Shown: positions 13,605 through 57,281 of the stretch, piece after piece
Numbering within the stretch: position 1 is the first letter of the stretch
Layout of the letters: every line of letters begins with the position of its first letter
NCBI GenBank assembly: GCA_049678605.1
Contig: JBAUEM010000014.1
Coordinates: 873 to 64,872, forward strand
DNA: 64,000 nt
Source: Dehalococcoidia bacterium
GTDB lineage: Bacteria; Chloroflexota; Dehalococcoidia; GIF9; AB-539-J10
Direction of reading: 5' to 3'
The notes under the pieces: model-generated
Databases searched by the model: none
What the model was told of the DNA's origin: nothing
The model's input: only the letters and a program-made list of their open reading frames with translations
Made by a program: the position numbers and the translations under genes

Positions 13605-13702
13605 CAGAAATCAAAAGCCAAAAATACAACTCTAAGCTGTAAGTCTAATGCCCCAAATTTAAGTACCAAAACTGCCCTTCGGGCAAAATCGATGGAACTT
13701 AT

Positions 13703-13954: not shown

Positions 13955-13995
13955 AGTTCTTGCCTTCGTTTATTTTAGCAGAAACTCTTGGAGTA

Positions 13996-14024
13996 TTGCT
14001 AAAACGATGGATATTGTATAAAAT
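13996..14024 (+). promoter_or_regulatory. Candidate promoter of speH-speE
   Basis: TTGCTA (13996-14001), 17-nt spacer, TAAAAT (14019-14024), about 60 nt upstream of speH. Confidence 0.4.
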
Positions 14025-14084
14025 TTGCCCTGTTGCCCAAAGGGCTCCATCACAAATCTAAAATTCTAAAGGAGGGAAGATGAT

Positions 14085-29577: not shown

Positions 29578-29720
29578 AAAAGGAGAAGCGTGGCAATCCC
29601 GCTGGCAGCGTATTCAATGGCATTTGAGACATAATACCTAATTTGTAGTAGGCCTAATTAGTATGGTGTCCCTGGAATTCGCAAGAAAGTCCGTTTTTTG
29701 CTACAATGGAGAGCCGAGCA

Positions 29721-39069: not shown

Positions 39070-39909
39070 TTGCAATTGACTATAGTAAAGACCATACCCG
39101 AGATAAGGGCACTAAGACAGAAGCTCAGCGGCATAGTGGGCTTCGTCCCCACTATGGGCTATCTTCACGAAGGCCATCTGGCTTTAGTAAAGCAGGCCAG
39201 GATGGAAAATTCCGTCGTTATTGTTAGCATTTACGTCAACCCCACTCAATTCGGCCCCAGGGAAGATTTTGGCGCTTATCCCCGAGAGCTTAACCGTGAC
39301 CTGGAGTCGTTGCGGGGAGAGGGGGTGGATATCGTCTTTGTCCCCTCCGATGATGAGATGTACCCACCCGAATTTAGTAGCTGGGTGGATGTGGAGAAGG
39401 TGACCGAGCGAGTTGAGGGAGCATCTCGTCCGGGGCATTTTAGGGGTGTAGCCACTGTAGTGGCCAAGCTATTCAACATTGTCCAGCCAACACGGGCTTA
39501 CTTCGGGCAGAAAGATGCCCAGCAGGTGATGGTCATTAAGAGAATGGTGGCTGACCTTAACATGGGGATAAGAATCGTGGTTGTACCTACGGTCAGGGAG
39601 AGCGATGGGCTGGCTATGAGCAGTCGCAATATTTACCTTAACCCCAAAGAACGCCAGGCAGCCACAATATTGTTCAAGGCTCTTACCTTAGCCCGGCAGT
39701 TAAGGCGGGGTGGGGAAAAGGATGCTGGAAAGATTCGCCGGCAAATGACCTCACTTATCCCAAAAGAACCTCTAGCCCGAATTGACTATGTCAGCATTGC
39801 TGATGCCGAAACAATGGCAGAATTGAGCTTGATCGACCGCCCGGCATTGGCTTCCTTAGCCGTCAGGATAGGTAAAATGAGGTTGATAGATAACATGCCT
39901 CTGGAATAA
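39070..39909 (+). CDS. panC: Pantoate--beta-alanine ligase
   Basis: GFVPTMGYLHEGHLALV (HIGH-like) and FGQKDAQQ motifs. TTG start; an alternative TTG at 39076 has better RBS spacing. Confidence 0.93.
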   Translation: MQLTIVKTIPEIRALRQKLSGIVGFVPTMGYLHEGHLALVKQARMENSVVIVSIYVNPTQFGPREDFGAYPRELNRDLESLRGEGVDIVFVPSDDEMYPPEFSSWVDVEKVTERVEGASRPGHFRGVATVVAKLFNIVQPTRAYFGQKDAQQVMVIKRMVADLNMGIRIVVVPTVRESDGLAMSSRNIYLNPKERQAATILFKALTLARQLRRGGEKDAGKIRRQMTSLIPKEPLARIDYVSIADAETMAELSLIDRPALASLAVRIGKMRLIDNMPLE

Positions 39910-42254: not shown

Positions 42255-43853
42255 CTATTTCGTAGCCCTGCGGCGCCTTCGCACCAGCAAGATTGTCCCA
42301 ACTATGATGGCTGCGCCAACGGCAATCCAGGGTGCTATGGCACGCAGTGTATCAATGGGAGATATGGGAGCTTCCGTCTCAGTAAGTGTCAGGATCACTG
42401 CGAGTGTCCGGGGTGTAATGGCTGCTCCAGCCGCTGCTACGGTTATTGTGGCGGAATAATCACCAGCGCTCATACCTGCTATATCTACAGAAGCCGTTAC
42501 CTCATCATGCTCACCGGTGGAACTACCATTTGTGGGCACTAAGGTCAGCCAGGCAGCGTCATCACTCACCGACCAATCTAGAGTACCCGTAACGGAGTTC
42601 CAGATTTCCAGTGTCTGATTTGCCGAGTTCGCCTCGCCAGCCACAGCGCTGAAACTCAAGCTCGCCGGACCGAAAGCAATCGTGGGAGCTTCCGTCTCAG
42701 TAAGGGGCAGGCTCACCGCCAGTGTCCGGGGTGTATTAGTTGCTCCAGCCGCTGCTATGGTTATGGTGGCGGAATAATCACCAGTGCTCATATCTGCTAT
42801 ATCTACAGAAGCCGTTACCACATCGTGCTCACCGGTGGAACTACCACTTGTGGGCGATAAGCTAAGCCAGTCGGCGTCATCACTCACCGACCAATCTAGA
42901 GTACTCGTACCGGAGTTCCAGATTTCCAGTGTCTGATTTGCCGGGTTAGCCTCACCAGCCACAGCACTGAAACTCAAGCTCGCCGGACCGAAAGCAATCG
43001 TGGGACCTTCCGTCCCAGTAAAGGTCAGGCTCACCACCAGTGTCCGGGGTGTATTAGGTGCTCCAGCCGCTGCTATGGTTATGGTGGCGGAATAATCACC
43101 AGTGCTCATACCTGTTACATCTACAGAAGCCGTTACCTCATCATGCTCACCGCTGGAACTACCACTCGTCGGCGCTAAGGCCAGCCAGGCAGCGTCATCA
43201 CTCACCGACCAGTCAAGCGTTCCTGGGCCTGAGTTCCATATCTCCAGTATCTGACTCGCCGGATTTGCTCCGCCCGCGGTGGCAAGGAAGGTAAACCTTT
43301 TTGGGTTAAAGGCTATGGTTGGTTCTGTTGGCAGAGAGACCTGCACTGAATGGTCCTCCGTGGTAGTGCTGATGAGGTTCGCCTGCCAATCATACATCCC
43401 TACCTCCTCCGGGGTGATATCGCTGGTGCTGCCGCCGGAGCCAAGAACCTCGAAGTGTATTTGGGCAAGGTAGCCCGTGCCAGTGACGCCGGGCGCGGGT
43501 GCGGCCGGTGTGGTGGCAATCACCCTGATTCTTCCTGTATCCACGGTATCCGGGGGGATATAGACCCAGTCACCTGGTTCTACCACAACGGTGTGACCAT
43601 CGATTTCGCCGCCTGTGACATCGGTCACGGTGATAATATTTTCGTCATAGGTAACATCGAAGCCGCAGATATTGTAGTTCTCCACGTAATCCACAGTCAC
43701 ATCGGCAACGAAGGAGCTTCCCGGATTCACCTCAGCTGGGGCATCTATGCCCACCGTCACCGTGCCATTGGCGCCAGTAATAGAAAGTGGCAGCAATGCC
43801 AGTGCCAGGCCCAGGCTTACTATGATGGCTAAAATGCCTTTCCAATGTTTCAT
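42255..43853 (-). CDS. Anchor protein A: signal peptide + cohesin + 3 BACON-like domains + C-terminal TM/RRRRR
   Basis: The cohesin-like module (about 43338-43766) reads GTVTVGIDAPAEVNPGSSFVADVTVDYVENYNICGFDVTYD...GTGYLAQIHFEVLG. It is followed by three ~105-aa repeats (L.FSAVAGEANPANQTLEIWNSG..LDWSVSDDA.WL.L.PTSGSS.GEHD.VTASVD...GDYSATITIAAAG). The C-terminus is PWIAVGAAIIVGTILLVRRRRRATK. Confidence 0.85.
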   Translation of the reverse strand: MKHWKGILAIIVSLGLALALLPLSITGANGTVTVGIDAPAEVNPGSSFVADVTVDYVENYNICGFDVTYDENIITVTDVTGGEIDGHTVVVEPGDWVYIPPDTVDTGRIRVIATTPAAPAPGVTGTGYLAQIHFEVLGSGGSTSDITPEEVGMYDWQANLISTTTEDHSVQVSLPTEPTIAFNPKRFTFLATAGGANPASQILEIWNSGPGTLDWSVSDDAAWLALAPTSGSSSGEHDEVTASVDVTGMSTGDYSATITIAAAGAPNTPRTLVVSLTFTGTEGPTIAFGPASLSFSAVAGEANPANQTLEIWNSGTSTLDWSVSDDADWLSLSPTSGSSTGEHDVVTASVDIADMSTGDYSATITIAAAGATNTPRTLAVSLPLTETEAPTIAFGPASLSFSAVAGEANSANQTLEIWNSVTGTLDWSVSDDAAWLTLVPTNGSSTGEHDEVTASVDIAGMSAGDYSATITVAAAGAAITPRTLAVILTLTETEAPISPIDTLRAIAPWIAVGAAIIVGTILLVRRRRRATK

Positions 43854-43878
43854 AATCTCACCTCCTTGTGTTATGCAG

Positions 43879-46368
43879 CTACGAAAAGTAGATTGTCTTA
43901 ATTGCAGTTATATCCCCAGTATCTATCATTTCATCACCATTGACATCGGCACAATCGGTTGGGGGGTCTAGTTCAAAGTAAATCCTCTTTGCCTTGGTGA
44001 TGTCCCCGCTATCTACGACGCCATCTCCATTAGCATCGCCCACTATACATACGAACAAGGCTAGAATCTTCTGATCAGTGTTAGGCGTGGTGAACGAATC
44101 GGTAACGGTAACTGTGACACTGAAGCCGCCAGATGCTGTCGGTGTTCCTGAGATAACTCCAGCCAGGGAGCAAGTTAAGCCAGCGGGTAATCCAGTCGCC
44201 CCCCAGGTACGAGGAGTCTTACCACCAGTTGCCACAAGAGTTGTCGAGTAGGCGTATCCTATCTTTATATTAGGAAGAGAAGTTGTGGTTATCTCCAGAG
44301 CGGCATATACCTTCAAGGCTAGAATCTTCTGGTCAGTGTTAGGCGTGCTGAACGAATCGGTAACAGTAACTGTGACACTAAAGTCACCCGACGCCTCCGG
44401 TGTTCCTGAGATGACTCCAGCCGTGGAGCAAGTTAAGCCAGTGGGTAATCCGGTCGCCACCCAGGTACGAGGAGTCTTACCACCAGTCGCCGTAAGAGTC
44501 GCCGAGTAGGCATCTTCTTCCTTCGCCTCAGGAAGAGAAGTTGTGGTTATCTCCAGAGCGGCATATACCTTCAAGGCTAGAACCTTCTCATCTGTATTAG
44601 GTGTGGAGAAGGAATCAGTAACGTTAACTGTGGCCGTGAAGTCACCCGACTCCGTCGGTGTTCCTGAGATGACTCCAGCCGTGGAGCAAGTTAAGCCAGC
44701 AGGTAATCCAGTCGCCCCCCAGGTATAAGGAGTCTTACCGCCGATGGCCGTAAAAGTTGCCGAGTAGGCATCTCCTACCTTCGCCTCAGGAAGGGAAGTT
44801 GTGGTTATCTCAAGGGGTGGGTATACCTTCAAGGCTAGAGTCGTCTGAGCAGTGTTAGGCGTGGAGAAGGAATCGGTAACGGTAACTGTGACACTGAAGT
44901 CGCCAGACGCTGTCGGAGTTCCTGAAATCACTCCAGCCGTGGAGCAAGTTAAGCCAGCAGGTAATCCAGTCGCCCCCCAGGTATAAGGAGTCTTACCGCC
45001 GATGGCCGTAAGAGTTGCCGAGTAGGCATCTCCTACCTTCGCCTCAGGAAGGGAAGTCGTGGTTATCTCAAGGGGTGGGTATACCTTCAAGGCTAGAATC
45101 TTCTGGTCAGTGTTAGGCGTGCTGAACGAATCGGTAGCAGTAACTGTGACACTAAGGTCGCCAGACTCCGTCGGAGTTCCTGAAATCACTCCAGCCGTGG
45201 AGCAAGTTAAGCCAGCAGGTAATCCAGTCGCTCCCCAGGTATAAGGTGGCTGACCACCACTTGCCGCAAGAGTCGCCGAGTAGGCATCTCCTACCTTCGC
45301 CTCGGGAAGAGAAGTTGTGGTTATCTCCAGAGCGGCATATACCTTCAAGGCTAGAATCTTGCTATCTGTATTAGGTGTGGAGAAGGAATCAGTAACGTTA
45401 ACTGTGGCCGTGAAGTCACCCGACTCCGTTGGAGTTCCTGAGATAACTCCATCCGCTGAGCAAGCTAAGCCAGCAGGTAATCCAGTCGCCCCCCAGGTAT
45501 GAGGAGTCTTACCACCAGTCGCTGCGAGAGTTGTGGTGTAAGGGTTCCCCGGGTACCCGTTAGGAAACGTAGTAGTGGTTATCTCAAGAGCAGGATATAC
45601 CTTTAAAGCTAGACCCTTGCTATCAGTGTCAGGTGGGCCGGCATCATCAGTAACGGTAACAGTGGGCGTGAAGTCACCCGACGCCGTTGGAGTTCCTGAG
45701 ATAACTCCAGCCGTGGAGCAACTTAAGCCACCAGGTAACCCGGTTGCCCCCCAGTTATAAGGTGGCTGACCACCGGTTGCCTCCAGCGTTGCCTCATAGT
45801 AGTCTCCTACCTTCGCCTCAGGAAGCGAAGTCGTGGTTATCTCCAGGGGGAAGGGAGCAGCAACATGTACCGAGTCATCTACTGTGGTCGTATCTATCTT
45901 GTTAGCCTCATAGTCATACATCCCCACCCCTTCCAGATGTATGGCACTGGTCTCGCAACTGGAGCCCAAAACATTGAAGTTTATTTGGGCGATGTGGCCT
46001 GTGCCAGTGACTCCAGGTCCGGGCATGCCGGGTACGACAGCGAGCACCCTGATTTTCCCTGGATCCGACGGACCGGAGGGATAGTAGACCCAGTCGACTT
46101 CAACGGCGTGACCATCGATTTCGCCGCCTGTGACATCGGTCACGGTGATAATTGTTTGGTCATAGGTAACGTCAAAGCCGCAGGCATCGTAGTTCTCCAC
46201 ATAATCCACAGTCACATTGGCAACGAAGGAGCTTCCCGGATTCACCTCAGCCGGGGCATCAATGCTCACCGTCACCGTGCCATTGGCGCCAGTAATAGAA
46301 AGTGGCAGCAATGCCAGTGCCAGGCCCAGGCTGACTACGATGGCTAAAATACCTTTCCAATGTTTCAT
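43879..46368 (-). CDS. Scaffold protein B: signal peptide + cohesin + 7 He_PIG-like Ig repeats + dockerin
   Basis: Cohesin about 45862-46281. Seven 86-aa repeats follow (LEITTTSLPEAKVGDAYSATL.A.GG..PYTWGATGLPAGLTCSTAGVISGTPT.SGDF..TVTVTD). The dockerin at 43882-44049 reads GDANGDGVVDSGDITKAKRIYF...CADVNGDEMIDTGDITAIKTIYFS. Confidence 0.88.
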   Translation of the reverse strand: MKHWKGILAIVVSLGLALALLPLSITGANGTVTVSIDAPAEVNPGSSFVANVTVDYVENYDACGFDVTYDQTIITVTDVTGGEIDGHAVEVDWVYYPSGPSDPGKIRVLAVVPGMPGPGVTGTGHIAQINFNVLGSSCETSAIHLEGVGMYDYEANKIDTTTVDDSVHVAAPFPLEITTTSLPEAKVGDYYEATLEATGGQPPYNWGATGLPGGLSCSTAGVISGTPTASGDFTPTVTVTDDAGPPDTDSKGLALKVYPALEITTTTFPNGYPGNPYTTTLAATGGKTPHTWGATGLPAGLACSADGVISGTPTESGDFTATVNVTDSFSTPNTDSKILALKVYAALEITTTSLPEAKVGDAYSATLAASGGQPPYTWGATGLPAGLTCSTAGVISGTPTESGDLSVTVTATDSFSTPNTDQKILALKVYPPLEITTTSLPEAKVGDAYSATLTAIGGKTPYTWGATGLPAGLTCSTAGVISGTPTASGDFSVTVTVTDSFSTPNTAQTTLALKVYPPLEITTTSLPEAKVGDAYSATFTAIGGKTPYTWGATGLPAGLTCSTAGVISGTPTESGDFTATVNVTDSFSTPNTDEKVLALKVYAALEITTTSLPEAKEEDAYSATLTATGGKTPRTWVATGLPTGLTCSTAGVISGTPEASGDFSVTVTVTDSFSTPNTDQKILALKVYAALEITTTSLPNIKIGYAYSTTLVATGGKTPRTWGATGLPAGLTCSLAGVISGTPTASGGFSVTVTVTDSFTTPNTDQKILALFVCIVGDANGDGVVDSGDITKAKRIYFELDPPTDCADVNGDEMIDTGDITAIKTIYFS
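44050..45855 (-). repeat. Array of 7 tandem 258-bp coding repeats (He_PIG-like units) in scaffold B
   Basis: The 258-bp period is visible as recurring antisense ORFs starting MVISRA/GGYTFKAR at 44285, 44543, 45059, 45317 and 45575. Confidence 0.9.
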
Positions 46369-46372
46369 AATC

Positions 46373-48808
46373 TCACCTCCTTTTGTTATGCAGGGAGCTA
46401 ACTCCGAAATAGATTATCTTAATTGCAGTTATATCCCCGGTATCTATCATTTCATCTCCATTGGCATCGGCACAGGGCGTTGGGGGGTCTAATGCAAAGT
46501 AAATCCTCTTTACCTTGGTGATGTCCCCGGCGTCTACGACGCCATCCATGTTGGCATCGCCCAGCTTACATGATATCGTCAGGCTTAGAACCTCCTCATC
46601 AGTGTTACCTAGAGCACCGGTGACAGTGACCGTGACATTGAAGCTACCAGCTTCCGCTACCGGAGTTCCTGAGATGACTCCAGCGGCGGAGCAGGTCAAG
46701 CCAGGAGGTAATCCAACTGCATTCCAGGAATAAGGAGTCTTACCGCCGGTGGCTTCAAGGGTGGCCGAGTAGGCATCCCCTACCTTCCCTTCGGGAAGCG
46801 TAGTTGTGGTTATCTCCAGGGCAGGGTACACCTTCAGGGCTAGGTCTGTGCTGTCAGTGTTAGCTGGGTCGAAGGAGTCGGTGACAGTAACCGTGACAGT
46901 GAAGTCACCATCCTCTGTTGGAGTCCCTGAGATGACTCCAGCCGCGGAGCAAGTCAAACGGGCAGGCAATCCAGTCGCCCCCCAGGTATAACCTGGCTTA
47001 CCACCGGTCGCCGTAAGAGTCGCTGAGTAGGCATCCCCTACTTTGCCTTCGGGAAGCTCAGTTGTGGTTATTTCCAGGGGTGGGTATACCTTCAGGGCCA
47101 GGTCTGTGCTGTCAGTGTTAGCTGGGTCGAAGGAGTCGGTAACAGTAACCGTGACGATGAAGTCGCCAGATGCTGTTGGAGTCCCTGAGATGACTCCAAC
47201 GGCGGAGCAATTCAAACCGGCAGGCAGTCCAGTTGCCTCCCAGGTGTAGGGCGGGACGCCGCCCGTGGCCTCCATGGTTTCCTCGTAAGCCTCACCTACC
47301 ACTCCGTCAGACAGGTGGGTGGTGAGGATGGAAAGCTCCACTTCGGTCCTTACTCTCGCCCGAAGGCAGGCATTCCCTTCACTTGTGGCAAGGTCGTCCC
47401 ACGTGCCGACATCCCCACATCTGGCATAAGATACGCCAGTCTGTATTGGCGGGTCAGCAAGCGCCCACCTGGTTTCAACGGGTATAGGGTAATTATAACC
47501 CGGCGTGGTCATATTGAGGGCTATGGTAAACGGCTGGCCACTGGCCAGCGAGACGGGAGAGCTAAGCGGTATAGAGTAGTAACCCAACTCCTGGCAAGTC
47601 CCCGATTGTAACGTGGCCGGGTCGTCGAGGCCATCGGAGATGTCGCCGTCGAGGTACACATAAATATCATACTCGGCGTTGTTGCTGGTGGTCCAGAAGT
47701 CAACGTGGGTGAGGCTGCCATCCTGAGTTGAGGTGAAGATGTTGGCCATCCAGGCGGAGGGCGCACCGCAGCCACCGTCGGCAACCATGCCAGCTTCGTC
47801 CCAGTAGTAGAGCTTCTCATTCGGGTCGTAATCTTTGTACTCGAGGTAGGCTATCTCCTCCATGCAGCTTGAATTGTAGGCTAGCCAGAAATAGCCACTG
47901 TCGCCCCAAGTTGTCCCCCAGCTATTCTTAACTAGCCAGGCACCAGTCCCCCCCGGCGGCTCAAAGTGGGGAACACTGTCATCCCAACCAATAATAGAGA
48001 CGAGATGGTTAGCAGCCGGACATTCATCGCAATCATAAACAGTGCCATAGGTAGCATCAGTGTATACATGCGCTCCATGATGATAGAAAGCCATGGTCAC
48101 AGGTCCCTGGTTATATACCACCTCTTTTATCAAACCGGTTTGGCTTTGGTCGTTGGTTACCAATCTATATCCATTGACTCTCTTAACAGGTGTGCAGTTG
48201 TCACACAGGCAAGCGCCGTTGCACTGCAAACCAGATGAATTGTAAGGATTGCACGACTCTAAAACTGCGCCTTTTTTGATAAAGACTTCGCTAGCGAGCC
48301 AGCTCCATCCACCACCATGAGATGGCTCTATCCCGCAGGGTTCGTCAGAATCATCGTAAAGATAGACCCAAGAACGGTCCACGCATAAAGCCACACTCTG
48401 TTCAGAAAAATCGTACCCTGTATTTTCACCGATCAAAACTGCTGATTCCAAGACAGAGGTAGTGCCAAAAATCCAGCAAGTTCCGCAGGAAAGCTGGTTT
48501 TTTATAGAGGTCACCTTGTCCTGGTCTCTCCAGTCGAAGCTGTCGGGGAGAGCGCCTGATTTCAAGAGACCTCCCGCAGGGATTGCATCGAGGTGGCTCA
48601 GGTCCATAGGCGGAGGAATATAGCCATAGAAAGGCTCCGGTGGCTCCTCCCAGAACTTGACGAAATCAGGATTCAGTGGACCTAGATGGAAAGTGTCATC
48701 TTCCTGGGCCTGGAGGTCGCTCATGCCTGCGGGGGGCATTAGGGCGATAGCAGCAAGCATGACCAGAGAACAAATTATCTTGAGCTTTTTGTCCCGATTA
48801 AGAATCAT
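46373..48808 (-). CDS. Dockerin-bearing papain-family (C1) cysteine protease with lectin-like domain and 3 He_PIG repeats
   Basis: The signal peptide follows the ATG at 48808 (GGAGGAG RBS). Catalytic triad context is NQLSCGTCW (Cys codon 48476-48478), NHLVSIIGWD and LVKNSWGTTWGDSGYFW. Three He_PIG units lie at 46571-47335 and the dockerin at 46403-46570. Confidence 0.88.
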   Translation of the reverse strand: MILNRDKKLKIICSLVMLAAIALMPPAGMSDLQAQEDDTFHLGPLNPDFVKFWEEPPEPFYGYIPPPMDLSHLDAIPAGGLLKSGALPDSFDWRDQDKVTSIKNQLSCGTCWIFGTTSVLESAVLIGENTGYDFSEQSVALCVDRSWVYLYDDSDEPCGIEPSHGGGWSWLASEVFIKKGAVLESCNPYNSSGLQCNGACLCDNCTPVKRVNGYRLVTNDQSQTGLIKEVVYNQGPVTMAFYHHGAHVYTDATYGTVYDCDECPAANHLVSIIGWDDSVPHFEPPGGTGAWLVKNSWGTTWGDSGYFWLAYNSSCMEEIAYLEYKDYDPNEKLYYWDEAGMVADGGCGAPSAWMANIFTSTQDGSLTHVDFWTTSNNAEYDIYVYLDGDISDGLDDPATLQSGTCQELGYYSIPLSSPVSLASGQPFTIALNMTTPGYNYPIPVETRWALADPPIQTGVSYARCGDVGTWDDLATSEGNACLRARVRTEVELSILTTHLSDGVVGEAYEETMEATGGVPPYTWEATGLPAGLNCSAVGVISGTPTASGDFIVTVTVTDSFDPANTDSTDLALKVYPPLEITTTELPEGKVGDAYSATLTATGGKPGYTWGATGLPARLTCSAAGVISGTPTEDGDFTVTVTVTDSFDPANTDSTDLALKVYPALEITTTTLPEGKVGDAYSATLEATGGKTPYSWNAVGLPPGLTCSAAGVISGTPVAEAGSFNVTVTVTGALGNTDEEVLSLTISCKLGDANMDGVVDAGDITKVKRIYFALDPPTPCADANGDEMIDTGDITAIKIIYFGVSSLHNKRR

Positions 48809-48882
48809 GGCTTTGCATCTCCTCCATTGGGCTAACGAAATTTCGTAGCAGTTTAGTTTCCCCAAAACTCTAGCTATAGTTC

Positions 48883-48910
48883 ACAGTATACCACTCCCCC
48901 GCACTGTCAA
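48883..48910 (-). promoter_or_regulatory. Candidate internal promoter for protease-scaffold B-anchor A
   Basis: The minus strand reads TTGACA-16 nt-TACTGT, about 75 nt upstream of the ATG at 48808. Confidence 0.3.
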
Positions 48911-49276
48911 GCGAGCGCCACCAGGCATCGTCACATCTATGCACAAATTTCGACTCAATCGGGACAGGTCGAAAATCCGGATGACAGGACGAAGTAGCTT
49001 TGACATTTGGGTTTGTTGAGGGTCAGGGCTTGTCCCCGAGTTCCAGTATGATTCTCTCTGTCCTGGCTGGGGAGAGTTAGACCCGTCCTTTTCACGAGGC
49101 GTGAACAACCTGTCCTGAAAAGAGCCGAAGAGTGAGACAATTTCAGCCCCATCCTTCGATAAACGCAGGACAGGCTCCTTATCCCTCCCGTCGAGGGACA
49201 GGAAACAGCGGGACTCCGTAGGGGTGGAACTCCCCGACTAAGGCGGAGATGAACTCCGCCCCTACGATTGAGTCCT

Positions 49277-49933
49277 CTATCTTATAGCCCTGCGGCGCCT
49301 TCGCACCAGCAGGCTTGTCCCAACTATGATGGCTGCGCCAACGGCAATCCAGAGCGCCACAATAGCCACCTTACTAATGGGACGAGCAGTACCGCCAACA
49401 GGAGGTGCAGGACCGCTTATGTCCACTGAAGCGCCCATTGTGGTAGTACTAATAGCGAGCGCGTTGCAATCATACATTCCTACCCCTTCCAGGTTGATGA
49501 CGCTACTATCGCCGCCGGAGCCAACAGCATCGAAGTGTATTTGGGCAAGGTAGCCCGTGCCATTGATCCCACACCCGGGTGGGCCCGATATGGTGGCCGC
49601 CACCCTGATTCTTCCTGTATCCGGGCCAGCAGGAATGTAGGACCAGTCGCCTGGAGCTACTTCAACGGCGTGACCATCGATTACGCCGCCTGTGACATCG
49701 GTCGCCGTGATAACTGTTTCGTCATAGGTAACATCGAAGCCGCAGGAGTCGAAGTCCGTCACCCAATCCACAGTCACATTAGCAACGAAGGAGCTTCCCG
49801 CCTCCACCTCAGCCGGGGCATCTATGCCCACCGTCACCGGGCCATTGTCGCCGCCCGTAATAGAAAGTGGCAGCAATGCCAGTGCCAGGCCCAGGCTTAC
49901 TATAATTGCTAAAATGCCTTTTCTATGGTGCAT
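49277..49933 (-). CDS. Anchor protein D: signal peptide + cohesin + C-terminal TM/RRRRR
   Basis: Cohesin at about 49418-49843 (GPVTVGIDAPAEVEAGSSFVANVTVDWVTDFDSCGFDVTYD...). The C-terminus VALWIAVGAAIIVGTSLLVRRRRRAIR is nearly identical in DNA to the 3' end of anchor A. Confidence 0.85.
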   Translation of the reverse strand: MHHRKGILAIIVSLGLALALLPLSITGGDNGPVTVGIDAPAEVEAGSSFVANVTVDWVTDFDSCGFDVTYDETVITATDVTGGVIDGHAVEVAPGDWSYIPAGPDTGRIRVAATISGPPGCGINGTGYLAQIHFDAVGSGGDSSVINLEGVGMYDCNALAISTTTMGASVDISGPAPPVGGTARPISKVAIVALWIAVGAAIIVGTSLLVRRRRRAIR

Positions 49934-49962
49934 AATCTCACCTCCTTGTGTTATGCAGGGAG

Positions 49963-50048
49963 CTAACTAGCTCCGAAGTAGGTTATCCTACTTGCAGTTA
50001 TATCTCCAGTATCTATCTTACCATCTCCATTGACATCGGCACAATTGG
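49963..50048 (-). pseudogene. Orphan dockerin second-half remnant
   Basis: The minus strand encodes TNCADVNGDGKIDTGDITASRITYFGAS-stop, immediately after and out of frame with the scaffold E stop. It duplicates the last 26 codons of a dockerin. Confidence 0.8.
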
Positions 50049-52532
50049 TTATCCAAAGTAGATTATCCTAATTGCAGTTATATCTCCAGTATCTACCTTA
50101 CCATCATCATTGACATCGGCACAATCGGTTGGGGGGTCTATTCCGAAGTAAATCCTCTTTACCTTGGTGATGTCCCCAGTATCTACGACGCCATCTCCAT
50201 TAGCATCGCCCACTATACATACCCACAAGGCTAGAATCTTCTGGTCAATGTTAGGCGTGGTGAACGAATCGGTAACAGTAACTGTGACACTGAAGTTACC
50301 CGACACTGTCGAGTTTCCTGAGATGACTCCAGCCGTGGAGCAAGTTAAGCCGGCGGGTAATCCAGTCGCCCCCCAAGTATGAGGAGTCTTACCACCGGTC
50401 GCCACAAGAGTTGTCGAGTAGGCGTATCCTATCTTTATATTAGGAAGGGAAGTTGTGGTTATCTCCAGAGCGGCATATACCTTCAAGCTTAAAACCTTGT
50501 TAACAATGTTGGGCGGGCTGAACGAATCGGTAGCAGTAACTGTGACACTAAAGTCGCCAGATGCTGTCGGAGTTCCTGAGATGACTACAGCCGTGGAGCA
50601 AGTCAAGCCAGCGGGTAATCCAGTCGCCCCCCAGGTATGAGGAGTCTTACCACCGGTTGCCGTAAGAGTCGCCGAGTAGGGATCTCCTACCTTCGCCTCG
50701 GGAAGAGGAGAAGTTGTGGTTATCTCCAGAGCGGCATATACCTTCAAGGCTAGAATCTTGCTATCTGTATTAGGAGTGGAGAAGGAATCGGTAACAGTAA
50801 CTGTGACACTGAGGTCGCCAAATGCCGTCGGAGTTCCTGAGATGACTCCAGCCGTGGAGCAAGTTAAGCCGGCAGGCAGTCCAGTCGCCACCCAGGTACG
50901 AGGAGTCTTACCGCCAGTGGCCGTAAGAGTCGCCGAGTAGGCATCTCCTACCTTCGCATCAGGAAGAGAAGTCGTGGTTATCTCAAGGGGTGGGTACACC
51001 TTCAAGGCTAGAATCTTGCTATCTGTATTAGGCGTGGAGAAGGAATCGGTAACGGTAACTGTGACACTAAAGTCGCCAGATGCTGTTGGTGTTCCTGAAA
51101 TCACTCCAGCCGTGGAACAAGTTAAGCCAGCAGGTAACCCAGTCGCCCCCCACGTATAACCTGGCTTACCACCGGTCGCCGTAAGAGTCGCCGAGTAGAC
51201 ATCTCCTACCTTCGCCTCAGGAAGAGAAGTTGTGATTATCTCCAGAGCGGGGTATACCTTCAAGGCCAGGTCCTTGCTCTCGCTGTCGGGCGGAGTGGCG
51301 GAATCAGTAACGGTAACTGCGACCGTGAAGTCACCCGACGCCGTTGGAGTTCCTGAGATAACTCCAGCCGTGGAGCAGGTCAAGCCGGCAGGTAATCCGG
51401 TCGCCCCCCAGGTATAAGGAGGCGTACCACCACTTGCCTCAAGAGTCACCGTGTAGGAATCTCCCACCTTCGCCTCGGGGAGTGAGGTCGTGCTTATCTC
51501 AAAATACGATATCCTCAGGCTTAGGACCTCTTCATCAGTGTTAGGCGTGGAGAAGGAATCGGTAACAGTAACCGTGACACTGAAATCACCAGTTGCTGTT
51601 GTAGTTCCTGAGATAACTCCCGCCGTGGAGCAACTTAAGCCGGCAGGTAATCCGGTCGCCCCCCAGGTAAGCGGTGGCTTACCACCAGTCGCCGCGAGAG
51701 TTGCGCTGTAGGGCTCCCCCGGGGTCCCGCTAGGAAGTGCAGTAGTGGTTATCTCAAGGGCAGGATATACCTTCAAAGCTAGACCCTTGCTATCAGTGTC
51801 GGGTGGGCCGGCGGAATCGGTAACAGTAACTGTGACCGTGAAGTCGCCGGATGCCGTTGGAGTTCCTGAGATAACTCCAGCTGTGGAGCAAGTTAAGCCG
51901 GCAGGTAACCCGGTCGCCCCCCAGGTGTAAGGTGGCTGGCCACCAGTGGCCGTAAGAGTCGCCGAGTAGACATCGCCTACCTTCGCCTCGGGAAGTGAAG
52001 TTGTGGTTATGCCCAAGACATCAGCGACATGTACAGAGTCATCCACTGTGGTCGTATCTATCCTGTTAGCCTCATAGTCATACATCCCCACCCCTTCCAG
52101 ATGTATGGCACTGGTTTGGCAACCGTAGCCCACAACATTGAAGTGTATTTGGGCGATGTAGCCTGTGCCAGTGACTCCAGGCCCAGGTATGCCTGCTATG
52201 CCAGTGATCACCCTGATTCTTCCTTGGTCCGGGCCAGAGGGGATATAGAACCAGTCGCCTGGATCTACTTCAACGGTGTGACCATCGATTTCGCCGCCTG
52301 TAACATCGGTCACGGTGATAATTGTTTCGTCATAGGTAACATCGAAGCCGCAGGAGTTGAAGTCCGTCACCCAATCCACAGCCACATCGGCAACGAAGGA
52401 GCTTCCCGGATTCACCTCAGCCGGGGCAACTATGCTCACCGTCACCGTGCCATTGGCGCCAGTAATAGAAATGGGGACCAACGCCAAACAAAAAACTACG
52501 AGCCAGGGTAAAAAATGCCTAAACTTTCCCAT
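50049..52532 (-). CDS. Scaffold protein E: signal peptide + cohesin + 7 He_PIG-like repeats + dockerin
   Basis: Cohesin about 52026-52451 and dockerin at 50052-50219 (GDANGDGVVDTGDITKVKRIYFGIDPPTDCADVNDDGKVDTGDITAIRIIYFG). The architecture is the same as scaffold B. Confidence 0.88.
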   Translation of the reverse strand: MGKFRHFLPWLVVFCLALVPISITGANGTVTVSIVAPAEVNPGSSFVADVAVDWVTDFNSCGFDVTYDETIITVTDVTGGEIDGHTVEVDPGDWFYIPSGPDQGRIRVITGIAGIPGPGVTGTGYIAQIHFNVVGYGCQTSAIHLEGVGMYDYEANRIDTTTVDDSVHVADVLGITTTSLPEAKVGDVYSATLTATGGQPPYTWGATGLPAGLTCSTAGVISGTPTASGDFTVTVTVTDSAGPPDTDSKGLALKVYPALEITTTALPSGTPGEPYSATLAATGGKPPLTWGATGLPAGLSCSTAGVISGTTTATGDFSVTVTVTDSFSTPNTDEEVLSLRISYFEISTTSLPEAKVGDSYTVTLEASGGTPPYTWGATGLPAGLTCSTAGVISGTPTASGDFTVAVTVTDSATPPDSESKDLALKVYPALEIITTSLPEAKVGDVYSATLTATGGKPGYTWGATGLPAGLTCSTAGVISGTPTASGDFSVTVTVTDSFSTPNTDSKILALKVYPPLEITTTSLPDAKVGDAYSATLTATGGKTPRTWVATGLPAGLTCSTAGVISGTPTAFGDLSVTVTVTDSFSTPNTDSKILALKVYAALEITTTSPLPEAKVGDPYSATLTATGGKTPHTWGATGLPAGLTCSTAVVISGTPTASGDFSVTVTATDSFSPPNIVNKVLSLKVYAALEITTTSLPNIKIGYAYSTTLVATGGKTPHTWGATGLPAGLTCSTAGVISGNSTVSGNFSVTVTVTDSFTTPNIDQKILALWVCIVGDANGDGVVDTGDITKVKRIYFGIDPPTDCADVNDDGKVDTGDITAIRIIYFG
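50220..52020 (-). repeat. Array of 7 tandem ~258-bp coding repeats (He_PIG-like units) in scaffold E
   Basis: Same unit as in scaffold B. Antisense ORFs recur at 50455, 50716, 50974, 51232, 51490 and 51745. Confidence 0.9.
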
Positions 52533-52557
52533 CTCTTATCTTTCACCTCCTTTCTTA

Positions 52558-53112
52558 TCAATCGAGTCCCATAATGATTCTTTTTATCTTGGTTATGTCT
52601 CCGGTATCTATAAAGCCGTCCTGATTAGCATCAGCACAGGGCGTTGGGGGGTCCAATCCCATAATGATTCTCTTCACCTTGGTTATGTCCCCGGTATCTA
52701 CCACGCCATCTCCGTTAGCATCGCCAGGGATGCAACCGGGTAGACGCAAGGGATGGTAGACCGTCCCGATCTTTTCAAAGGTACCACTGGCTGCCGCTAT
52801 AACATTGCCTCCATAGTTTACGCTAAAGTATACGGTCTCACCCTCATCGGCCTCATCGCCAGGCACATCTACCCAGTAATATGACACCCCGTGCTGCATA
52901 TAGAGGGTAGCAGGGCACGGCCCAACATAAGGGTCTTCCAGCCAAGCAGTTACCACTGTGCCATCAGGCACATTTTGGTCACCGATAGTCACCGGTCCAA
53001 AAAAGCGGCACTCTGGACCGACGTGAGCGAGAACTATACCAGGCAACAGAGCCAGGACAACCATAGCTACCACCGCAAATAAGTGTAATACCTTTACGTT
53101 GCCTCTTCTCAT
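52558..53112 (-). CDS. Small secreted dockerin protein (unknown ~95-aa domain + dockerin)
   Basis: GAAGGAGGG RBS and a signal peptide. The dockerin at 52561-52734 reads GDANGDGVVDTGDITKVKRIIMGLDPPTPCADANQDGFIDTGDITKIKRIIMGLD. Confidence 0.8.
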   Translation of the reverse strand: MRRGNVKVLHLFAVVAMVVLALLPGIVLAHVGPECRFFGPVTIGDQNVPDGTVVTAWLEDPYVGPCPATLYMQHGVSYYWVDVPGDEADEGETVYFSVNYGGNVIAAASGTFEKIGTVYHPLRLPGCIPGDANGDGVVDTGDITKVKRIIMGLDPPTPCADANQDGFIDTGDITKIKRIIMGLD

Positions 53113-53199
53113 CCCTTTTTCCCTCCTTCACATAAGACTGATTAGCGACTGCCAATCTGAACTAGAGAGCTCATTTTGGCCTCAAACATAAACATAGGG

Positions 53200-53233
53200 T
53201 ATAGGCAGCCCCAGAAATCTGGGACTGCCTATA
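53200..53233 (-). terminator. Stem-loop between the 1201-aa gene and the small dockerin gene (weak terminator or processing site)
   Basis: TATAGGCAGCCCC...GGG(A)CTGCCTATA forms a roughly 13-bp interrupted stem. The downstream minus-strand tract CCCUAUGUUUAUGUU is only moderately U-rich. Confidence 0.3.
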
Positions 53234-53275
53234 CAACTCATTCAGCTAAGGGCATTAACTTACCCACGCCAGAGA

Positions 53276-56200
53276 TTACGTTCCAAGGTAAATCCTCTTT
53301 ACCTGGGTTATGTCTCCCGCATCTACGAAGCTGTCCTGATTGGCATCGGCTCCAATAGTGGCAGGATCTATTCCAAAGTAAATCCTCTTTACCTTAGTGA
53401 TGTCTCCGGTATTCACCACATTGTCCTGATTGGCATCACCCAGCATCAGCGGGTCATCAGGTTCGTCTACTACCGCGAAGTCGAGGTTCCACTGACGGGT
53501 TATCGTGCCTTCCTCTTCGAAGAGCCACGCCGTCAGGCTAGCCCTAGTGGCGAGCTCGTCAGTGTAGACCAATACTGCGGCAACGGCATGGTGACATTCA
53601 TCATCAGGCCAGAATTTCTCCCACAAGGCCAGCTCCTCAGGACCGGGCTCCTTCATGAAACTTTCACCCATGGTTCTGTCGAGATTAGTAACACTTCCAT
53701 AGGTGCCAGCAAGGAAGCCATTCTCAACGTCAATATCGGGTAGACAAATGCTGACGCCCTCGTTCGTAATGTTCGGGATAATGGCCATCTGTGCACCATC
53801 AACTGTACCTAAATTCCACTCGACTCTCTCACCAACTACCGGGAAGCCATCTCGGTCGCAGGCCCAGATGAATGCCATCTTATAGTTGGTCAGTTCGGGG
53901 TTCAAGCAAGAGACGACGTCGTCTACCTGGAACACCATGCGAGTGTCAGGGGGATCGTTTGGCTCTGGGTCATTGCCCCTGATATCCTTGCCCCAGGTCC
54001 AGGTCTTTTCGACATCGTTGGAAACCACATACAGATGCTTGCGCAGGTAAGGGTAGTCAGCGATAGCCTTTACTGTGGTGTTACCTACTATCTCCCCTGT
54101 GGGAATGTCATAGCCACCAACGACCAGCCAGGCGCTGAGGTCAAGGTTCCAGTCACCGTTGAGCCAGACCATGGCCTCACCGTGGTTGTCGGAGTAGACC
54201 TCAACCTTGGTTGGGTGCTGCGGGTCATATGGAGTCACACCGGGTAGCTGGTTGATAATGTCCCAGAAGGGGTAAGGTCCGTAGGAATCAACCTCAAAAC
54301 CGTAGCTATCCCAGTCATAGCCGCCGTTGTTGATGAAGGGCGGGATAAACGGACTGCTGGCTATCATCTCCTCATAGAATGGGTTGGTGTAGACGATGCC
54401 TTCGGGTCCGGGATTGTTCAGGTCTCTCTCAACCCACTCGTAGTAGATGTCGCCCTTGTCAGCGTCTTTGAAGAATCCAACACCCTCGGTAATCTTGAAG
54501 ACTATCTTGGCTGGCGGCATGGGGCAGTCCCACCAGTTCAGCTTACCATTGCGGACAATTGTCTTGCGGTCAAGCTTATAATCGTGATCGATGGTTGGAC
54601 TGTAGGTATCCAGGGTGCTGTAAGGTCCGATAACCGGAGCCTGAGCTACCAGGGCACCAGGTATGTCAAGCCTCGTGGGACGTTCGTCGAGAGTCCACTC
54701 TAGGTAGTCACCCAGCTCCTCAGCATGGTCGAGATTGCTGTCAATCTCGCTCATGATGTTGTCATTGGGCTGACACATAATGTCATAATGCGGGCGTAGC
54801 TCCGCCCACTCAGCGCCAGCCAGGATTGGCCAGTCGTCGGGAAGAACCCAGCGTCCCTCGGGAAGTCTGGTCTCAGCAAAACCATCGCCATCGAGGTCAA
54901 CAAGTTTATCCTCTCTCCAGCTCAGGTTATCGCCCATAAACCAGCCCTTGACTCGAGTGCGGAGTAGGGCATCCTGGGATACGTTCAGTTCCTGCGACAG
55001 ATCATCAAGAGTAGGATCCCAGACAGGATCGCTAATCTCGTAGTACCATTGCACATCAGGACCTGGAGGACTTGGTATGGTGGTCCAGTCTGTAGTAACC
55101 ACCACGGTATCGGCGGTATTGCTCTCTATCTCCCGTATCTGTAGGTCACCTATGAAGGTGATGCTGCCATCATCTTCCTCTTCTCCCTTCCATACCTCGA
55201 TAGTCTTTCCTACAAACTCGTCTACCGCCCAGTTCGCAGTGGGGTCCCAAATGTCATTGGGGAAGGCATCATAGACCATACCACTGTCGAGTACAGGATC
55301 CCACAGTCCATCGTCGTGATAAGCTCTCTCGCCCTGCATGTTGCCCAGGGTGAGTTCCTCAAATTTGAGGAAGAACACCACAAAGCCGTGCTGGTTGATG
55401 AGTTGCCATGGCTCAAGTTCATCATACAAGGCGCATGCCACATCGCACTCGCCGGGCTTCTCGGAAAACACGATGCAGCGAGCAACACCATCCTCGTCAA
55501 CAGTAGTCCAGACAGTGTCCTGCATACCGGTAGCCGGCATCCAATTAGATTGTGGTACGACGGCCTCCAAGGTTCCAGGAGACTCATTCTCAAGGGTAAA
55601 GCATACGTCAAAGCCAGTATAGCTCGTGCCGAACTGCTTCTCCAGGACTATTTTCTCTCCGGCCCATCTTACCTGGGGAACCTTCTCAAGTTCCTGAGTC
55701 CAGAAGTTCCAACTGATGATCTCGGGGAAAACAGGCCACTCGTCGTAGTGAAGCCGGTCAGGATACTTGGCGACAACGACGATCTTCACCGCTTCCTCAC
55801 CGCAGGCAATCAGCTCTACTCCGGTTAGTCCGGTCATCATACCGTCTATATCTGCATCACCACTTTCGGTTTCTATGTACTTGGTGCTACAGTCTTCGGG
55901 ATTGCCATTCAAGAAACCGACAAGTCGTGAGGGGTATGCGGCCTGCATGTCATCGATAAGAGTAACCAGCCCAGGCTGCAACCCCAACATGGGGTCCATC
56001 CAGTCACCAGCAGGAATGCCGCTGGGCAGGTCGTGTACCGGAGCTCGGGCATCCATCACCCACCATTCAACATCGGCACCGTCGGCAAAAGAGAGAAACT
56101 CCTCTCCACCATCGGTTATGAAGTTGCCGATAATCAAATCGTACAAATAGGCTTCGCCTTCCCACTTCTTCAGATTCTCGTTCCACCAGACTTGGGTTTC

Positions 56201-56881
56201 GCCCGAGTCATAAATCTCTTCTTCGGTGTACGAATCCCACGCGAAGAGCCAGGTGTCAAAGATCTTGCCCCACTTCTTTATGGCCATGAGGGTGGTGGCG
56301 GGGTAATCCGTGAAAGCCTCAGTATCGGCATAGATTACCAGCTCGCCCCAGCCGCTGCCGTGTACTGTGACGCAATTGTCAAAAGGGTCGCCGCCGGATA
56401 CTATGCTCCAGGCGCCATTAAGGTAAAAACTGGACTCAAAGCGCCACTGCATGACGTGACCCATATAGAGATCAGGAACACAGAATGTGGCCTCAGTGCC
56501 AATGATATTGTACTCCTGCTGGGGTATCAGGCCCACGCCTATCAGAATCTCAAACTCGGCGTCCTGATCCAGGCCTCCCCACCACCCGGTAGCTGATATG
56601 ACATGCATTCCCGCAGAAAGGGCAGGGAACGTCGTGGTCAATTCGAACGGAGCTGTATTGTCAGTGCTGTCATAAGTCCCGTCTATATACCAGTCAACGC
56701 TATCAGCCGTCGGATTGGTCGCGGCCTCGAAGGTCACAGTCTCGCCTTCCTTGGCATAGGGGGGACCAGCGATGACGATATCGGCATGTCCCGCCAGGAC
56801 TGTCAGCGGCATCAGGCCGACAACGAGTGCTAAAGCAAAGATAAGATATAACGCTTTAGCGTGCCATTTAGGTTTTTTCAT
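53276..56881 (-). CDS. 1201-aa secreted dockerin protein of unknown function
   Basis: GGAGGAAATAA RBS and a signal peptide (ALYLIFALALVVGLMPLTVLA). About 1100 aa have no motif I can place. The dockerin at 53279-53443 reads GDANQDNVVNTGDITKVKRIYFGIDPATIGADANQDSFVDAGDITQVKRIYLGT. Confidence 0.85.
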   Translation of the reverse strand: MKKPKWHAKALYLIFALALVVGLMPLTVLAGHADIVIAGPPYAKEGETVTFEAATNPTADSVDWYIDGTYDSTDNTAPFELTTTFPALSAGMHVISATGWWGGLDQDAEFEILIGVGLIPQQEYNIIGTEATFCVPDLYMGHVMQWRFESSFYLNGAWSIVSGGDPFDNCVTVHGSGWGELVIYADTEAFTDYPATTLMAIKKWGKIFDTWLFAWDSYTEEEIYDSGETQVWWNENLKKWEGEAYLYDLIIGNFITDGGEEFLSFADGADVEWWVMDARAPVHDLPSGIPAGDWMDPMLGLQPGLVTLIDDMQAAYPSRLVGFLNGNPEDCSTKYIETESGDADIDGMMTGLTGVELIACGEEAVKIVVVAKYPDRLHYDEWPVFPEIISWNFWTQELEKVPQVRWAGEKIVLEKQFGTSYTGFDVCFTLENESPGTLEAVVPQSNWMPATGMQDTVWTTVDEDGVARCIVFSEKPGECDVACALYDELEPWQLINQHGFVVFFLKFEELTLGNMQGERAYHDDGLWDPVLDSGMVYDAFPNDIWDPTANWAVDEFVGKTIEVWKGEEEDDGSITFIGDLQIREIESNTADTVVVTTDWTTIPSPPGPDVQWYYEISDPVWDPTLDDLSQELNVSQDALLRTRVKGWFMGDNLSWREDKLVDLDGDGFAETRLPEGRWVLPDDWPILAGAEWAELRPHYDIMCQPNDNIMSEIDSNLDHAEELGDYLEWTLDERPTRLDIPGALVAQAPVIGPYSTLDTYSPTIDHDYKLDRKTIVRNGKLNWWDCPMPPAKIVFKITEGVGFFKDADKGDIYYEWVERDLNNPGPEGIVYTNPFYEEMIASSPFIPPFINNGGYDWDSYGFEVDSYGPYPFWDIINQLPGVTPYDPQHPTKVEVYSDNHGEAMVWLNGDWNLDLSAWLVVGGYDIPTGEIVGNTTVKAIADYPYLRKHLYVVSNDVEKTWTWGKDIRGNDPEPNDPPDTRMVFQVDDVVSCLNPELTNYKMAFIWACDRDGFPVVGERVEWNLGTVDGAQMAIIPNITNEGVSICLPDIDVENGFLAGTYGSVTNLDRTMGESFMKEPGPEELALWEKFWPDDECHHAVAAVLVYTDELATRASLTAWLFEEEGTITRQWNLDFAVVDEPDDPLMLGDANQDNVVNTGDITKVKRIYFGIDPATIGADANQDSFVDAGDITQVKRIYLGT

Positions 56882-57252: not shown

Positions 57253-57281
57253 AGTATAACTAGGCATCTTCTTTTTGTCAA
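57253..57281 (-). promoter_or_regulatory. Candidate promoter P2 of the cohesin-dockerin cluster
   Basis: The minus strand reads cctaTTGACA-17 nt-TATACT, about 365 nt upstream of the ATG at 56881. Confidence 0.5.

Follow-up and report, generated by a model that had tools for sequence, protein, structure and literature searches.

Gene organization of the cohesin-dockerin cluster

We analysed a 64,000-nucleotide (nt) stretch of the genome of a Dehalococcoidia bacterium (assembly GCA_049678605.1, contig JBAUEM010000014.1, positions 873 to 64,872 of the forward strand), hereafter the window, and focused on a cluster of seven genes, A to G, that encode proteins bearing cohesin and dockerin modules. 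All seven open reading frames (ORFs) lie on the minus strand, the coordinates given for B and E in the initial annotation were confirmed, and signal-peptide-like N-termini were found on all seven proteins. The first gene of the cluster, G (53276-56881), encodes a secreted all-beta multi-sandwich protein of 1201 amino acids (aa) with Pfam Big_7 and Dockerin_1 matches, whose C-terminal dockerin is near-symmetric and lacks the Cys pair described below. It is followed by F (52558-53112), which encodes a secreted 184-aa protein consisting of a small N-terminal domain and a near-symmetric dockerin, and by E (50049-52532), which comprises a signal peptide, a cohesin (nt 52026-52442), seven He_PIG modules (approximately nt 50220-52025) and a dockerin (nt 50052-50219). 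D (49277-49933) encodes a 218-aa anchor with a signal peptide, a cohesin (aa 34-165), a linker of about 14 aa, a transmembrane helix and an RRRRR tail. C (46373-48865) encodes a papain-family (C1) cysteine peptidase (Peptidase_C1, 3.6e-37 in Pfam) with a lectin-like domain (Lectin_like, 2.7e-30), three He_PIG modules and a dockerin. B (43879-46368) repeats the plan of E, with a signal peptide, a cohesin (nt 45862-46275), seven He_PIG modules (approximately nt 44050-45861) and a dockerin (nt 43882-44049). A (42255-43853) encodes a 532-aa anchor in which a signal peptide and a cohesin (aa 33-172) precede three BACON domains (nt 42365-43261; BACON_2, 1.4e-25 in Pfam), a transmembrane helix and an RRRRR tail.

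The initial annotation had described B and E as scaffolds with one N-terminal cohesin, seven immunoglobulin (Ig)-like spacers and one C-terminal dockerin, had named A and D as anchor cohesins, and had pointed to dockerin-only cargos. Pfam, hidden Markov models (HMMs) and Tandem Repeats Finder all bore out the architecture of B and E, the spacers being He_PIG modules. A and D each combined a Cohesin match with a C-terminal membrane helix and RRRRR, and C, F and G carried a dockerin without a cohesin, as expected of dockerin-only cargos.

The intergenic gaps measured 163 nt (G-F), 25 nt (F-E), 115 nt (E-D), 411 nt (D-C), 4 nt (C-B) and 25 nt (B-A). The B-A spacer is identical in sequence to the end of the E-D spacer, and the 3' ends of A and D, together with a hairpin-bearing stretch of about 35 nt downstream of each, are 84% identical. 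The 411-nt D-C gap and the common hairpin-bearing sequence after A and D suggest that the cluster consists of two paralogous units, G-F-E-D (cargo, cargo, stalk, anchor) and C-B-A (cargo, stalk, anchor). In one related locus (L001), a GIY-YIG nuclease gene and a small ORF lie within the D-C gap (13559-14052). Just after the stop codon of E in the window, a degenerate, out-of-frame 79-80-nt copy of the second dockerin repeat of E was found on the minus strand (49972-50050; period 80, 91% matches in Tandem Repeats Finder), and its translation in another frame is NCADVNGDGKIDTGDITASRITYFGAS. We interpret this copy as a duplication or recombination scar at the E-D junction. Also on the minus strand are a promoter-like site upstream of G (57253-57281; TTGACA-17-TATACT), which is a consensus match only, at 11 of 12 positions, and a terminator- or attenuator-like hairpin with a 16-bp stem between G and F (53199-53234).

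The order G-F-E-D-C-B-A recurs in at least five related Dehalococcoidia metagenome genomes. Synteny was complete in L001, L003 and L004, and partial in L010 and in L012 and L015, which are parts of one genome; cohesin- and dockerin-bearing genes were strictly co-located in every related locus. The G protein has about 120 homologues, none of which is annotated; they are secreted proteins of 1000-1300 aa whose Pfam domains are limited to an occasional dockerin or PKD. The AlphaFold2 model of G is all-beta (predicted local distance difference test score, pLDDT, 81.6). Foldseek returned no catalytic fold for this model, and the matches were multi-Ig or macroglobulin-domain structures (alpha-2-macroglobulin/complement, SbsB and Ig arrays) with TM values of about 0.1.

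Modules, stalks and related proteins

Family-specific HMMs were run on all six frames of the 64 kb and identified exactly four cohesins (A, B, D and E) and five dockerins (B, C, E, F and G), with none outside the cluster, which agrees with the four-by-five set counted in the initial annotation. In Pfam, all four cohesins scored above the gathering cut-off of the Cohesin family (PF00963, 24.1 bits), with 32.9 bits for A (E 8.6e-8), 50.1 bits for B (E 4e-13, aa 32-169), 29.7 bits for D and 35.3 bits for E (E 1.5e-8, aa 31-169), and the seven He_PIG modules gave E-values of 4e-69 in B and 4e-74 in E. For Dockerin_1 (PF00404, cut-off 22.9 bits), the dockerins of E (23.3 bits, aa 775-820) and F (33.7 bits) were above the cut-off, and those of B (19.7 bits, aa 777-824), G (21.4 bits) and C (17.5 bits) fell just under it. 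The sub-threshold dockerins were recognised by the family-specific HMM (E 1e-33), which gave 6e-31 for G. All five window dockerins contain, twice, a DxNxDxxxDxxD loop followed by a helix; positions D5, N7, D9, D16, N37, D39 and D46 were invariant among 14 aligned dockerins, and the Ca-ligand positions and helix residues were invariant across 44. The dockerin profile matched type I dockerins of C. thermocellum in the PDB (2ccl_B at 6e-7), and the best PDB matches, all type I dockerins, share the K-R dyad of helix 1.

The AlphaFold2 model of the B cohesin is a nine-stranded beta-sandwich (pLDDT 95.1). Its best structural match was 2xdh, a cohesin of Archaeoglobus fulgidus (Foldseek E 2.4e-12, TM 0.77, 19% sequence identity), followed by the type I cohesins 6kgc, 5nrm, 1aoh and 1ohz, and the top 50 Foldseek PDB matches were essentially all cohesins. 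By sequence, the cohesin profile gave only weak partial alignments to the PDB (E 0.004). Strands were therefore assigned from the model, as contact residues are not transferable residue by residue from such alignments, and the dockerin-binding face is presumably that of type I complexes in general. The weak sequence match of the cohesins, together with three of the five dockerins lying just under the Pfam gathering score, would fit an account in which the modules no longer bind, for example with the dockerin as a C-terminal cap stabilised by Ca and the cohesin as an ordinary beta-sandwich. We consider this highly improbable, given the invariance of the Ca-ligand and helix residues across the 44 dockerins, the strong purifying conservation of the cohesins, the strict co-location of cohesin and dockerin genes in every related locus, and the strong dockerin binding of the A. 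fulgidus cohesin family, the closest relative in structure.

In 35 of the 44 dockerins, a Cys just ahead of the dockerin is accompanied by one in the linker between the repeats (PTPC); both are absent in seven, including G, and the linker Cys stands alone in two. This co-occurrence suggests a disulfide clasp between the dockerin and the final strand of the module that precedes it. Within the window, the dockerin regions with the Cys-pair pattern lie at 43882-44060, 46400-46570, 50052-50230 and 52567-52740.

At their C-termini, A (42258-42360) and D (49280-49382) share a segment with the motifs GGTA[YRH]P..K, PWIA[VL]GAAIIVG and RRRR(R), in which the hydrophobic helix is followed by RRRRR. No C-terminal sorting-signal model of NCBIfam matched A or D, and neither an SLH domain nor an LPXTG motif was found in them. 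The shared segment could be a plain transmembrane anchor or an undescribed sorting signal. Since only about 14 residues separate the D cohesin from the transmembrane helix, this cohesin would sit at the membrane surface, and in a D-E complex the short linker would therefore place the E cohesin one stalk length off the membrane.

The stalks of B and E are built from a 258-nt unit, present in 6.9 copies in B and 7.0 in E according to Tandem Repeats Finder, and the repeat units are 75-90% identical at the DNA level. Neighbouring He_PIG modules are separated by just 2-3 residues, and the rod is therefore probably stiff. Across orthologues, the spacer between cohesin and dockerin changes in steps of about 86 aa. 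Spacers of B orthologues measured about 347, 433, 437, 521 and 602 aa, corresponding to 4, 5, 5, 6 and 7 modules, and those of E orthologues about 348-351 and 600-601 aa, corresponding to 4 and 7 modules. These features indicate that the stalk is probably a rapidly resizing, stiff rod. With an assumed length of about 4 nm for each Ig-like module, we estimate a seven-module rod at roughly 25-30 nm.

To place B and E in their wider family, we relied on an exhaustive cohesin-profile search, which returned 1655 representatives at E <= 1e-3 and 95 at E <= 1e-30. Among the best 150 representatives, 45 carry cohesin and dockerin in one chain (22 of these 45 in a 1:1 ratio), 20 end in a transmembrane helix with a basic tail, and many contain several cohesins, up to six (polycohesin proteins). 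Spacing was measurable in 42 of the cohesin-and-dockerin representatives, and in 15 of these the two modules abut, 0-1 residues apart. One of the relatives, P0240, is a stand-alone 249-aa signal peptide-cohesin-dockerin (SP-Coh-Doc) protein. The cohesin-dockerin cassette is also attached to a NosD/beta-helix and GLUG protein (L007, 315-5426) and to a caspase-family (C14) peptidase (L018, 1081-5070), each with about one residue between the modules, and to an M23 peptidase (L006, 789-4241). In two further proteins (L007, 5452-8886; L014, 1607-7894), neither of which has a recognised catalytic domain, the cassette stands mid-chain and is followed by a large uncharacterised C-terminal region. The cargo of the relatives includes C1, C14 and M23 peptidases and a NosD/beta-helix protein. 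As judged from these architectures, one plug and one socket per chain is a design principle of the clade and not a peculiarity of B and E. Stacking of plug on socket is a plausible theme of the family, because the zero-linker forms can bind only in trans. Narrow cohesin patterns run over 185,579 GTDB species genomes matched a single species, JBAVCL01, at three loci, a result that says little on distribution.

The spacing data also bear on the idea that the dockerin of B or E folds onto its own cohesin, so that the protein stays self-capped until a partner of higher affinity is met. With a spacer of about 600 aa, compatible modules would meet at a high effective local concentration. The linkers of 2-3 residues point to a rod that is probably stiff, and closure in cis is impossible in relatives with a spacing of 0-1 residues, which nevertheless keep both modules; we therefore give intramolecular closure very little credence.

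Proposed pairing specificity and mode of assembly

The four window cohesins are 64-79% identical, and identities across four fully sampled genomes range from 55 to 90%. Three cohesin classes, namely A anchors, D anchors and stalk or soluble cohesins, are kept across at least six genomes. In B numbering, position 96 is L in the anchors and I in stalk or soluble cohesins; position 114, placed by the model in strand 8 of the sheet that binds the dockerin, is occupied by T in A, by N in D and by H in stalk or soluble cohesins; and position 123 is W in A, C in D and Y in stalk or soluble cohesins. Positions 134 and 140 are also class-dependent, and the classes can be told by the motifs PGCG and MYDC in the D cohesin and MYDW in the A cohesin.

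The initial annotation had suggested that recognition helices be compared in search of specificity classes, and the three helix strings it listed, ITKVKRIYF, ITAIKTIYF and ITKIKRIIM, are all present in the window dockerins. Helix 1 reads ITK[VA]KRI[YI][FM] in all five, being ITKVKRIYF in B, C, E and G and nearly the same in F. Helix 3 reads ITAIKTIYFS in B, ITAIKxIYFS in the B/C class and ITAIRIIYFG in E. The F dockerin is near-symmetric (ITKVKRIIMG / ITKIKRIIMG), with 12 of 13 helix positions identical between the repeats, and the dockerins of B, C and E are less symmetric than those of F and G. The comparison sorted the dockerins into conserved classes (B/C, with 77-88% identity between B and C dockerins; E; and the near-symmetric F and G). 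In a published trend (PMC5429695), enzyme-borne dockerins are dual-binding and anchoring dockerins asymmetric. The contrast between the near-symmetric F and G dockerins and the less symmetric B, C and E dockerins matches this trend.

The 5' ends of the cohesin genes are mosaic (A, 43284-43883; B, 45799-46398; D, 49364-49963; E, 51963-52562; all on the minus strand). They were aligned over about 600 nt, consisting of 30 nt upstream and the first 570 coding nt. Over roughly the first 300 nt, a stretch that spans the upstream ribosome-binding-site region, the signal peptide and half of the cohesin (the first), identities between A, B and D are 88-97%; E shares in this similarity, at 78-97%, only after alignment column 120 is reached. 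The class residues lie in the second half, where A and B are 63-68% identical, and B and E 77-97%. Gene conversion appears to have homogenised the 5' halves of the cohesin genes while the 3' halves stay distinct, and the locus as a whole reads as a mosaic of linkage blocks with breakpoints within the He_PIG arrays.

Mirror-tree comparisons over six genomes gave correlations for the E cohesin with the G dockerin (r 0.79), the A cohesin with the B dockerin (0.74), the D cohesin with the C dockerin (0.66) and the D cohesin with the E dockerin (0.63). In the control, non-binding neighbour segments correlated equally well, with 0.77 for the G body and G dockerin and 0.88 for the BACON domains and A cohesin, and the mirror-tree signal, which reflects the linkage blocks, was therefore rejected as evidence of specificity.

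We propose, with about even confidence, that the locus encodes a non-cellulosomal, membrane-anchored cohesin-dockerin display system with hierarchical wiring. A and D would be type-I membrane proteins that hold a cohesin outside the cytoplasmic membrane, directly at the membrane in D and on three BACON domains in A. B and E, which from their sequences have the composition that defines a monovalent adaptor (exactly one cohesin, exactly one dockerin and only He_PIG modules between), would act as adaptor scaffoldins, each a stiff rod of seven tightly joined modules. Their Ca-binding, type-I-like dockerin, probably disulfide-stapled to the preceding module, would plug into a cohesin nearer the membrane, and their N-terminal cohesin at the far end would receive another dockerin-bearing protein. 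The dockerins of E, B and protease C (helix 3 ITAI[KR]x) would bind the anchor cohesins of D and A, and the near-symmetric dockerins of F and G those of the stalks. On this wiring, the genes would stand in the order in which their products assemble, G,F → E → D and C → (B) → A. The papain-like protease and the large proteins rich in beta structure would thereby be held at defined distances from the membrane, and evolution would adjust these distances through the number of stalk modules (4-7). The conserved cohesin and dockerin classes fit such a hierarchy at least as well as a polymer, and the wiring also draws support from the distinct 3' halves of the cohesin genes, where the class residues lie, and from the agreement of dockerin symmetry with the published trend. 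Some stacking of adaptor on adaptor is possible, and the data do not require it.

Several points weigh against this hierarchy. The cohesin classes do not differ from one another in strands 3 and 6 or in most of strand 8. Because helix 1 is near-identical in all five dockerins, a cohesin that takes F or G through its KxKR helix might also accept B, C and E. The asymmetry of the B, C and E dockerins is mild, with only helix-3 positions 15, 16 and 18 differing and 7-10 of 13 positions identical. The partition between scaffold dockerins and cargo dockerins is not clean, since protease C has the dockerin class of B. Two further cohesin-dockerin proteins, L016 and P0240, have near-symmetric dockerins. 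Conservation of the classes could reflect orthology rather than specificity, and the mosaic pattern could reflect where flanking homology permits gene conversion. The length of the stalk in nanometres and its rigidity are assumptions.

The architecture of B and E is logically able to form head-to-tail chains, as the initial annotation had argued. It had also contrasted B and E with classical cellulosomal scaffoldins. That contrast overlooked two known monovalent adaptors of Ruminococcus flavefaciens, ScaC and ScaH. Like B and E, ScaH (PDB 8AJY) consists of one cohesin and one dockerin and has no catalytic module. It sits between the single-cohesin surface anchor ScaE and other components, has been described as an adaptor or spacer of variable length, and carries a dockerin that binds ScaE and also recognises the cohesin of ScaH itself (PMC5301203). 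This is exactly the mechanism that had been proposed for B and E; stackable one-plug-one-socket adaptors are thus already known from rumen cellulosomes, and the head-to-tail idea is not conceptually new. In R. flavefaciens, a peptidase dockerin also binds the anchor directly (PMC5301203), and protease C parallels this peptidase. ScaH is not closely homologous to the proteins described here, as the dockerin profile matches 8ajy_B only at E 0.0056 and the ScaH modules are of type III. ScaH is part of the cellulosome with which a Firmicute degrades plant fibre, and the anchor there is sortase-linked, whereas the present system has a transmembrane-helix anchor, a spacer of 4-7 He_PIG modules, a cargo of peptidase and unknown proteins, and a Dehalococcoidia host. 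ScaC also has a single cohesin and a single dockerin. Its type-I-like cohesin recruits dockerins other than those taken by the cohesin that its own dockerin binds, which is the hierarchical wiring favoured here. Unlike B and E, ScaC is short and has no Ig stalk; its binding partner is a polycohesin scaffoldin in place of a membrane anchor, and the proteins that it recruits are hemicellulases.

By analogy with ScaH, B and E may be promiscuous or self-compatible adaptors: every cohesin would take every dockerin, or at least the B/E dockerins would also fit the B/E cohesins, and the adaptors would be inserted zero, one or several times between anchor and cargo, which would give one cargo per linear tether of variable length. 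We regard this as a tentative alternative. The invariant core of strands 3, 6 and 8 shared by the cohesin paralogues and the helix 1 common to the B, C, E and G dockerins (and almost to F) are consistent with it, and a cohesin that takes cargo C should also take B, since their dockerins form one class. The recurrence of chains with both modules in the family, including the abutting and P0240-type SP-Coh-Doc forms, is in its favour as well. It is opposed by the residues that distinguish anchor from stalk cohesins, which are conserved in at least six genomes and include one on strand 8, and by the conservation of the dockerin classes. Moreover, the stalks with their variable module number already supply length, and a self-compatible 1:1 protein on a long tether risks forming rings or soluble oligomers that are never anchored.

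The initial annotation had further envisaged chains decorated by cargo and an S-layer-like mesh, and neither stands. A 1:1 unit has two binding sites, so that a chain could carry a single cargo at its tip only, and a mesh needs nodes with at least three binding sites, none of which is encoded in the window. With one cohesin and one dockerin each, B and E can form linear or cyclic chains only; each chain exposes exactly one free cohesin, and capping by cargo is possible. That B and E build open-ended polymers or an S-layer-like mesh growing from A and D as a substitute for a wall therefore seems very unlikely to us. The architecture allows chains, polycohesin relatives exist and could provide branching, and the Foldseek list for G includes the S-layer protein SbsB among its many multi-Ig matches. 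However, two binding sites per protein make no mesh by themselves, one free cohesin remains per chain, no polycohesin protein is present in the window, and the structural matches of G are uninformative at their TM values.

A broader possibility is that the cassette is, in this clade, a universal daisy-chain connector with a single loose specificity, placed on stalks, peptidases, beta-helix and SP-Coh-Doc proteins alike and forming open-ended, mixed, membrane-rooted filaments. We consider this unlikely. If it were true, a lineage that may be without a conventional wall would have a programmable 'proteolysome' or exoskeleton, and the expression ratio of pass-through units to dockerin-only caps would set the length and composition of the filaments.

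Known systems and neighbouring genes

We compared the hierarchical display system proposed above with the classical cellulosome (C. thermocellum CipA with the SdbA and OlpB anchors). The two have in common type-I-like dockerins with two F-hand repeats and a K-R dyad, a tiered logic of anchor, scaffold and cargo, and a type-I-like cohesin on whose 8-3-6-5 face binding is expected. They differ in the anchor, which is a transmembrane helix here and SLH- or sortase-based in cellulosomes, and in the cohesins, which form one family here, with anchor and stalk at 55-81% identity, and separate types I and II in cellulosomes. No glycoside hydrolase domain or other carbohydrate-active enzyme (CAZyme) was found in the cargo, made up of the C1 peptidase C, the small uncharacterised protein F and the multi-beta-sandwich protein G; no protein of the window has more than one cohesin, and no carbohydrate-binding module (CBM) was found in A to G. 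The locus is thus not a cellulosome, because it lacks CAZyme cargo, a polycohesin scaffoldin, a CBM and an SLH or sortase anchor.

Among non-cellulosomal systems, the A. fulgidus pair ORF2375/2376 (2XDH), for which strong and specific binding has been reported, provides the structure closest to the B cohesin. This pair is archaeal, and no multi-gene cluster of anchor, stalk and cargo is described for it in the literature we located. Anaerobic methanotrophic (ANME) archaea resemble the present case in having abundant non-cellulosomal cohesin and dockerin proteins, of unknown function, in uncultured sediment anaerobes; some of these proteins have a dockerin and up to five cohesins, and the reported cargo is mostly substrate-binding proteins. 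A full-text literature search returned no paper linking cohesin and dockerin with Dehalococcoidia, and the matches listed for Chloroflexi were, by their titles and abstract openings, community metagenomics.

What appears to be new here is a cohesin-dockerin system of Dehalococcoidia that is anchored in the membrane, bears a protease and has He_PIG stalk adaptors. Such a system would extend this mode of assembly to the class, to the display of proteases as opposed to the degradation of plant fibre, and to direct membrane anchoring. The compact natural set of four cohesins and five dockerins, closely related at 55-90% identity and distinguished by few class residues, is well suited to mapping cohesin-dockerin specificity, and the modules could serve synthetic biology as a source of orthogonal or stackable connectors. 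Should the adaptors stack, a tether of variable length of the ScaH type would have evolved independently outside cellulosomes.

Elsewhere in the window, about 6 kb from the cluster, a gene on the minus strand (34077-36287) encodes a secreted protein of 736 aa that contains six repeats of CBM_X2 (X2), a module otherwise typical of the scaffoldins of cellulosomes. The C-terminus of this protein consists of a 'CFIATAAYG...' segment, a transmembrane helix and an RRRGRG tail, and it would be another membrane-anchored surface protein. No tRNA genes were found in the window, and the sole Rfam match in it was a pan-motif RNA on the plus strand (RF01749, 36537-36617; 39.1 bits against a gathering score of 36.2). 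The motif lies upstream of a DUF2520 oxidoreductase-like gene (36711-37577), panB (38112-38948) and panC (39070-39909). A plus-strand gene at 29706-33866, unrelated to the cluster, encodes a protein of 1386 aa in which BcrAD_BadFG ATPase domains are fused to a CoA-enzyme-activase domain (DUF2229).

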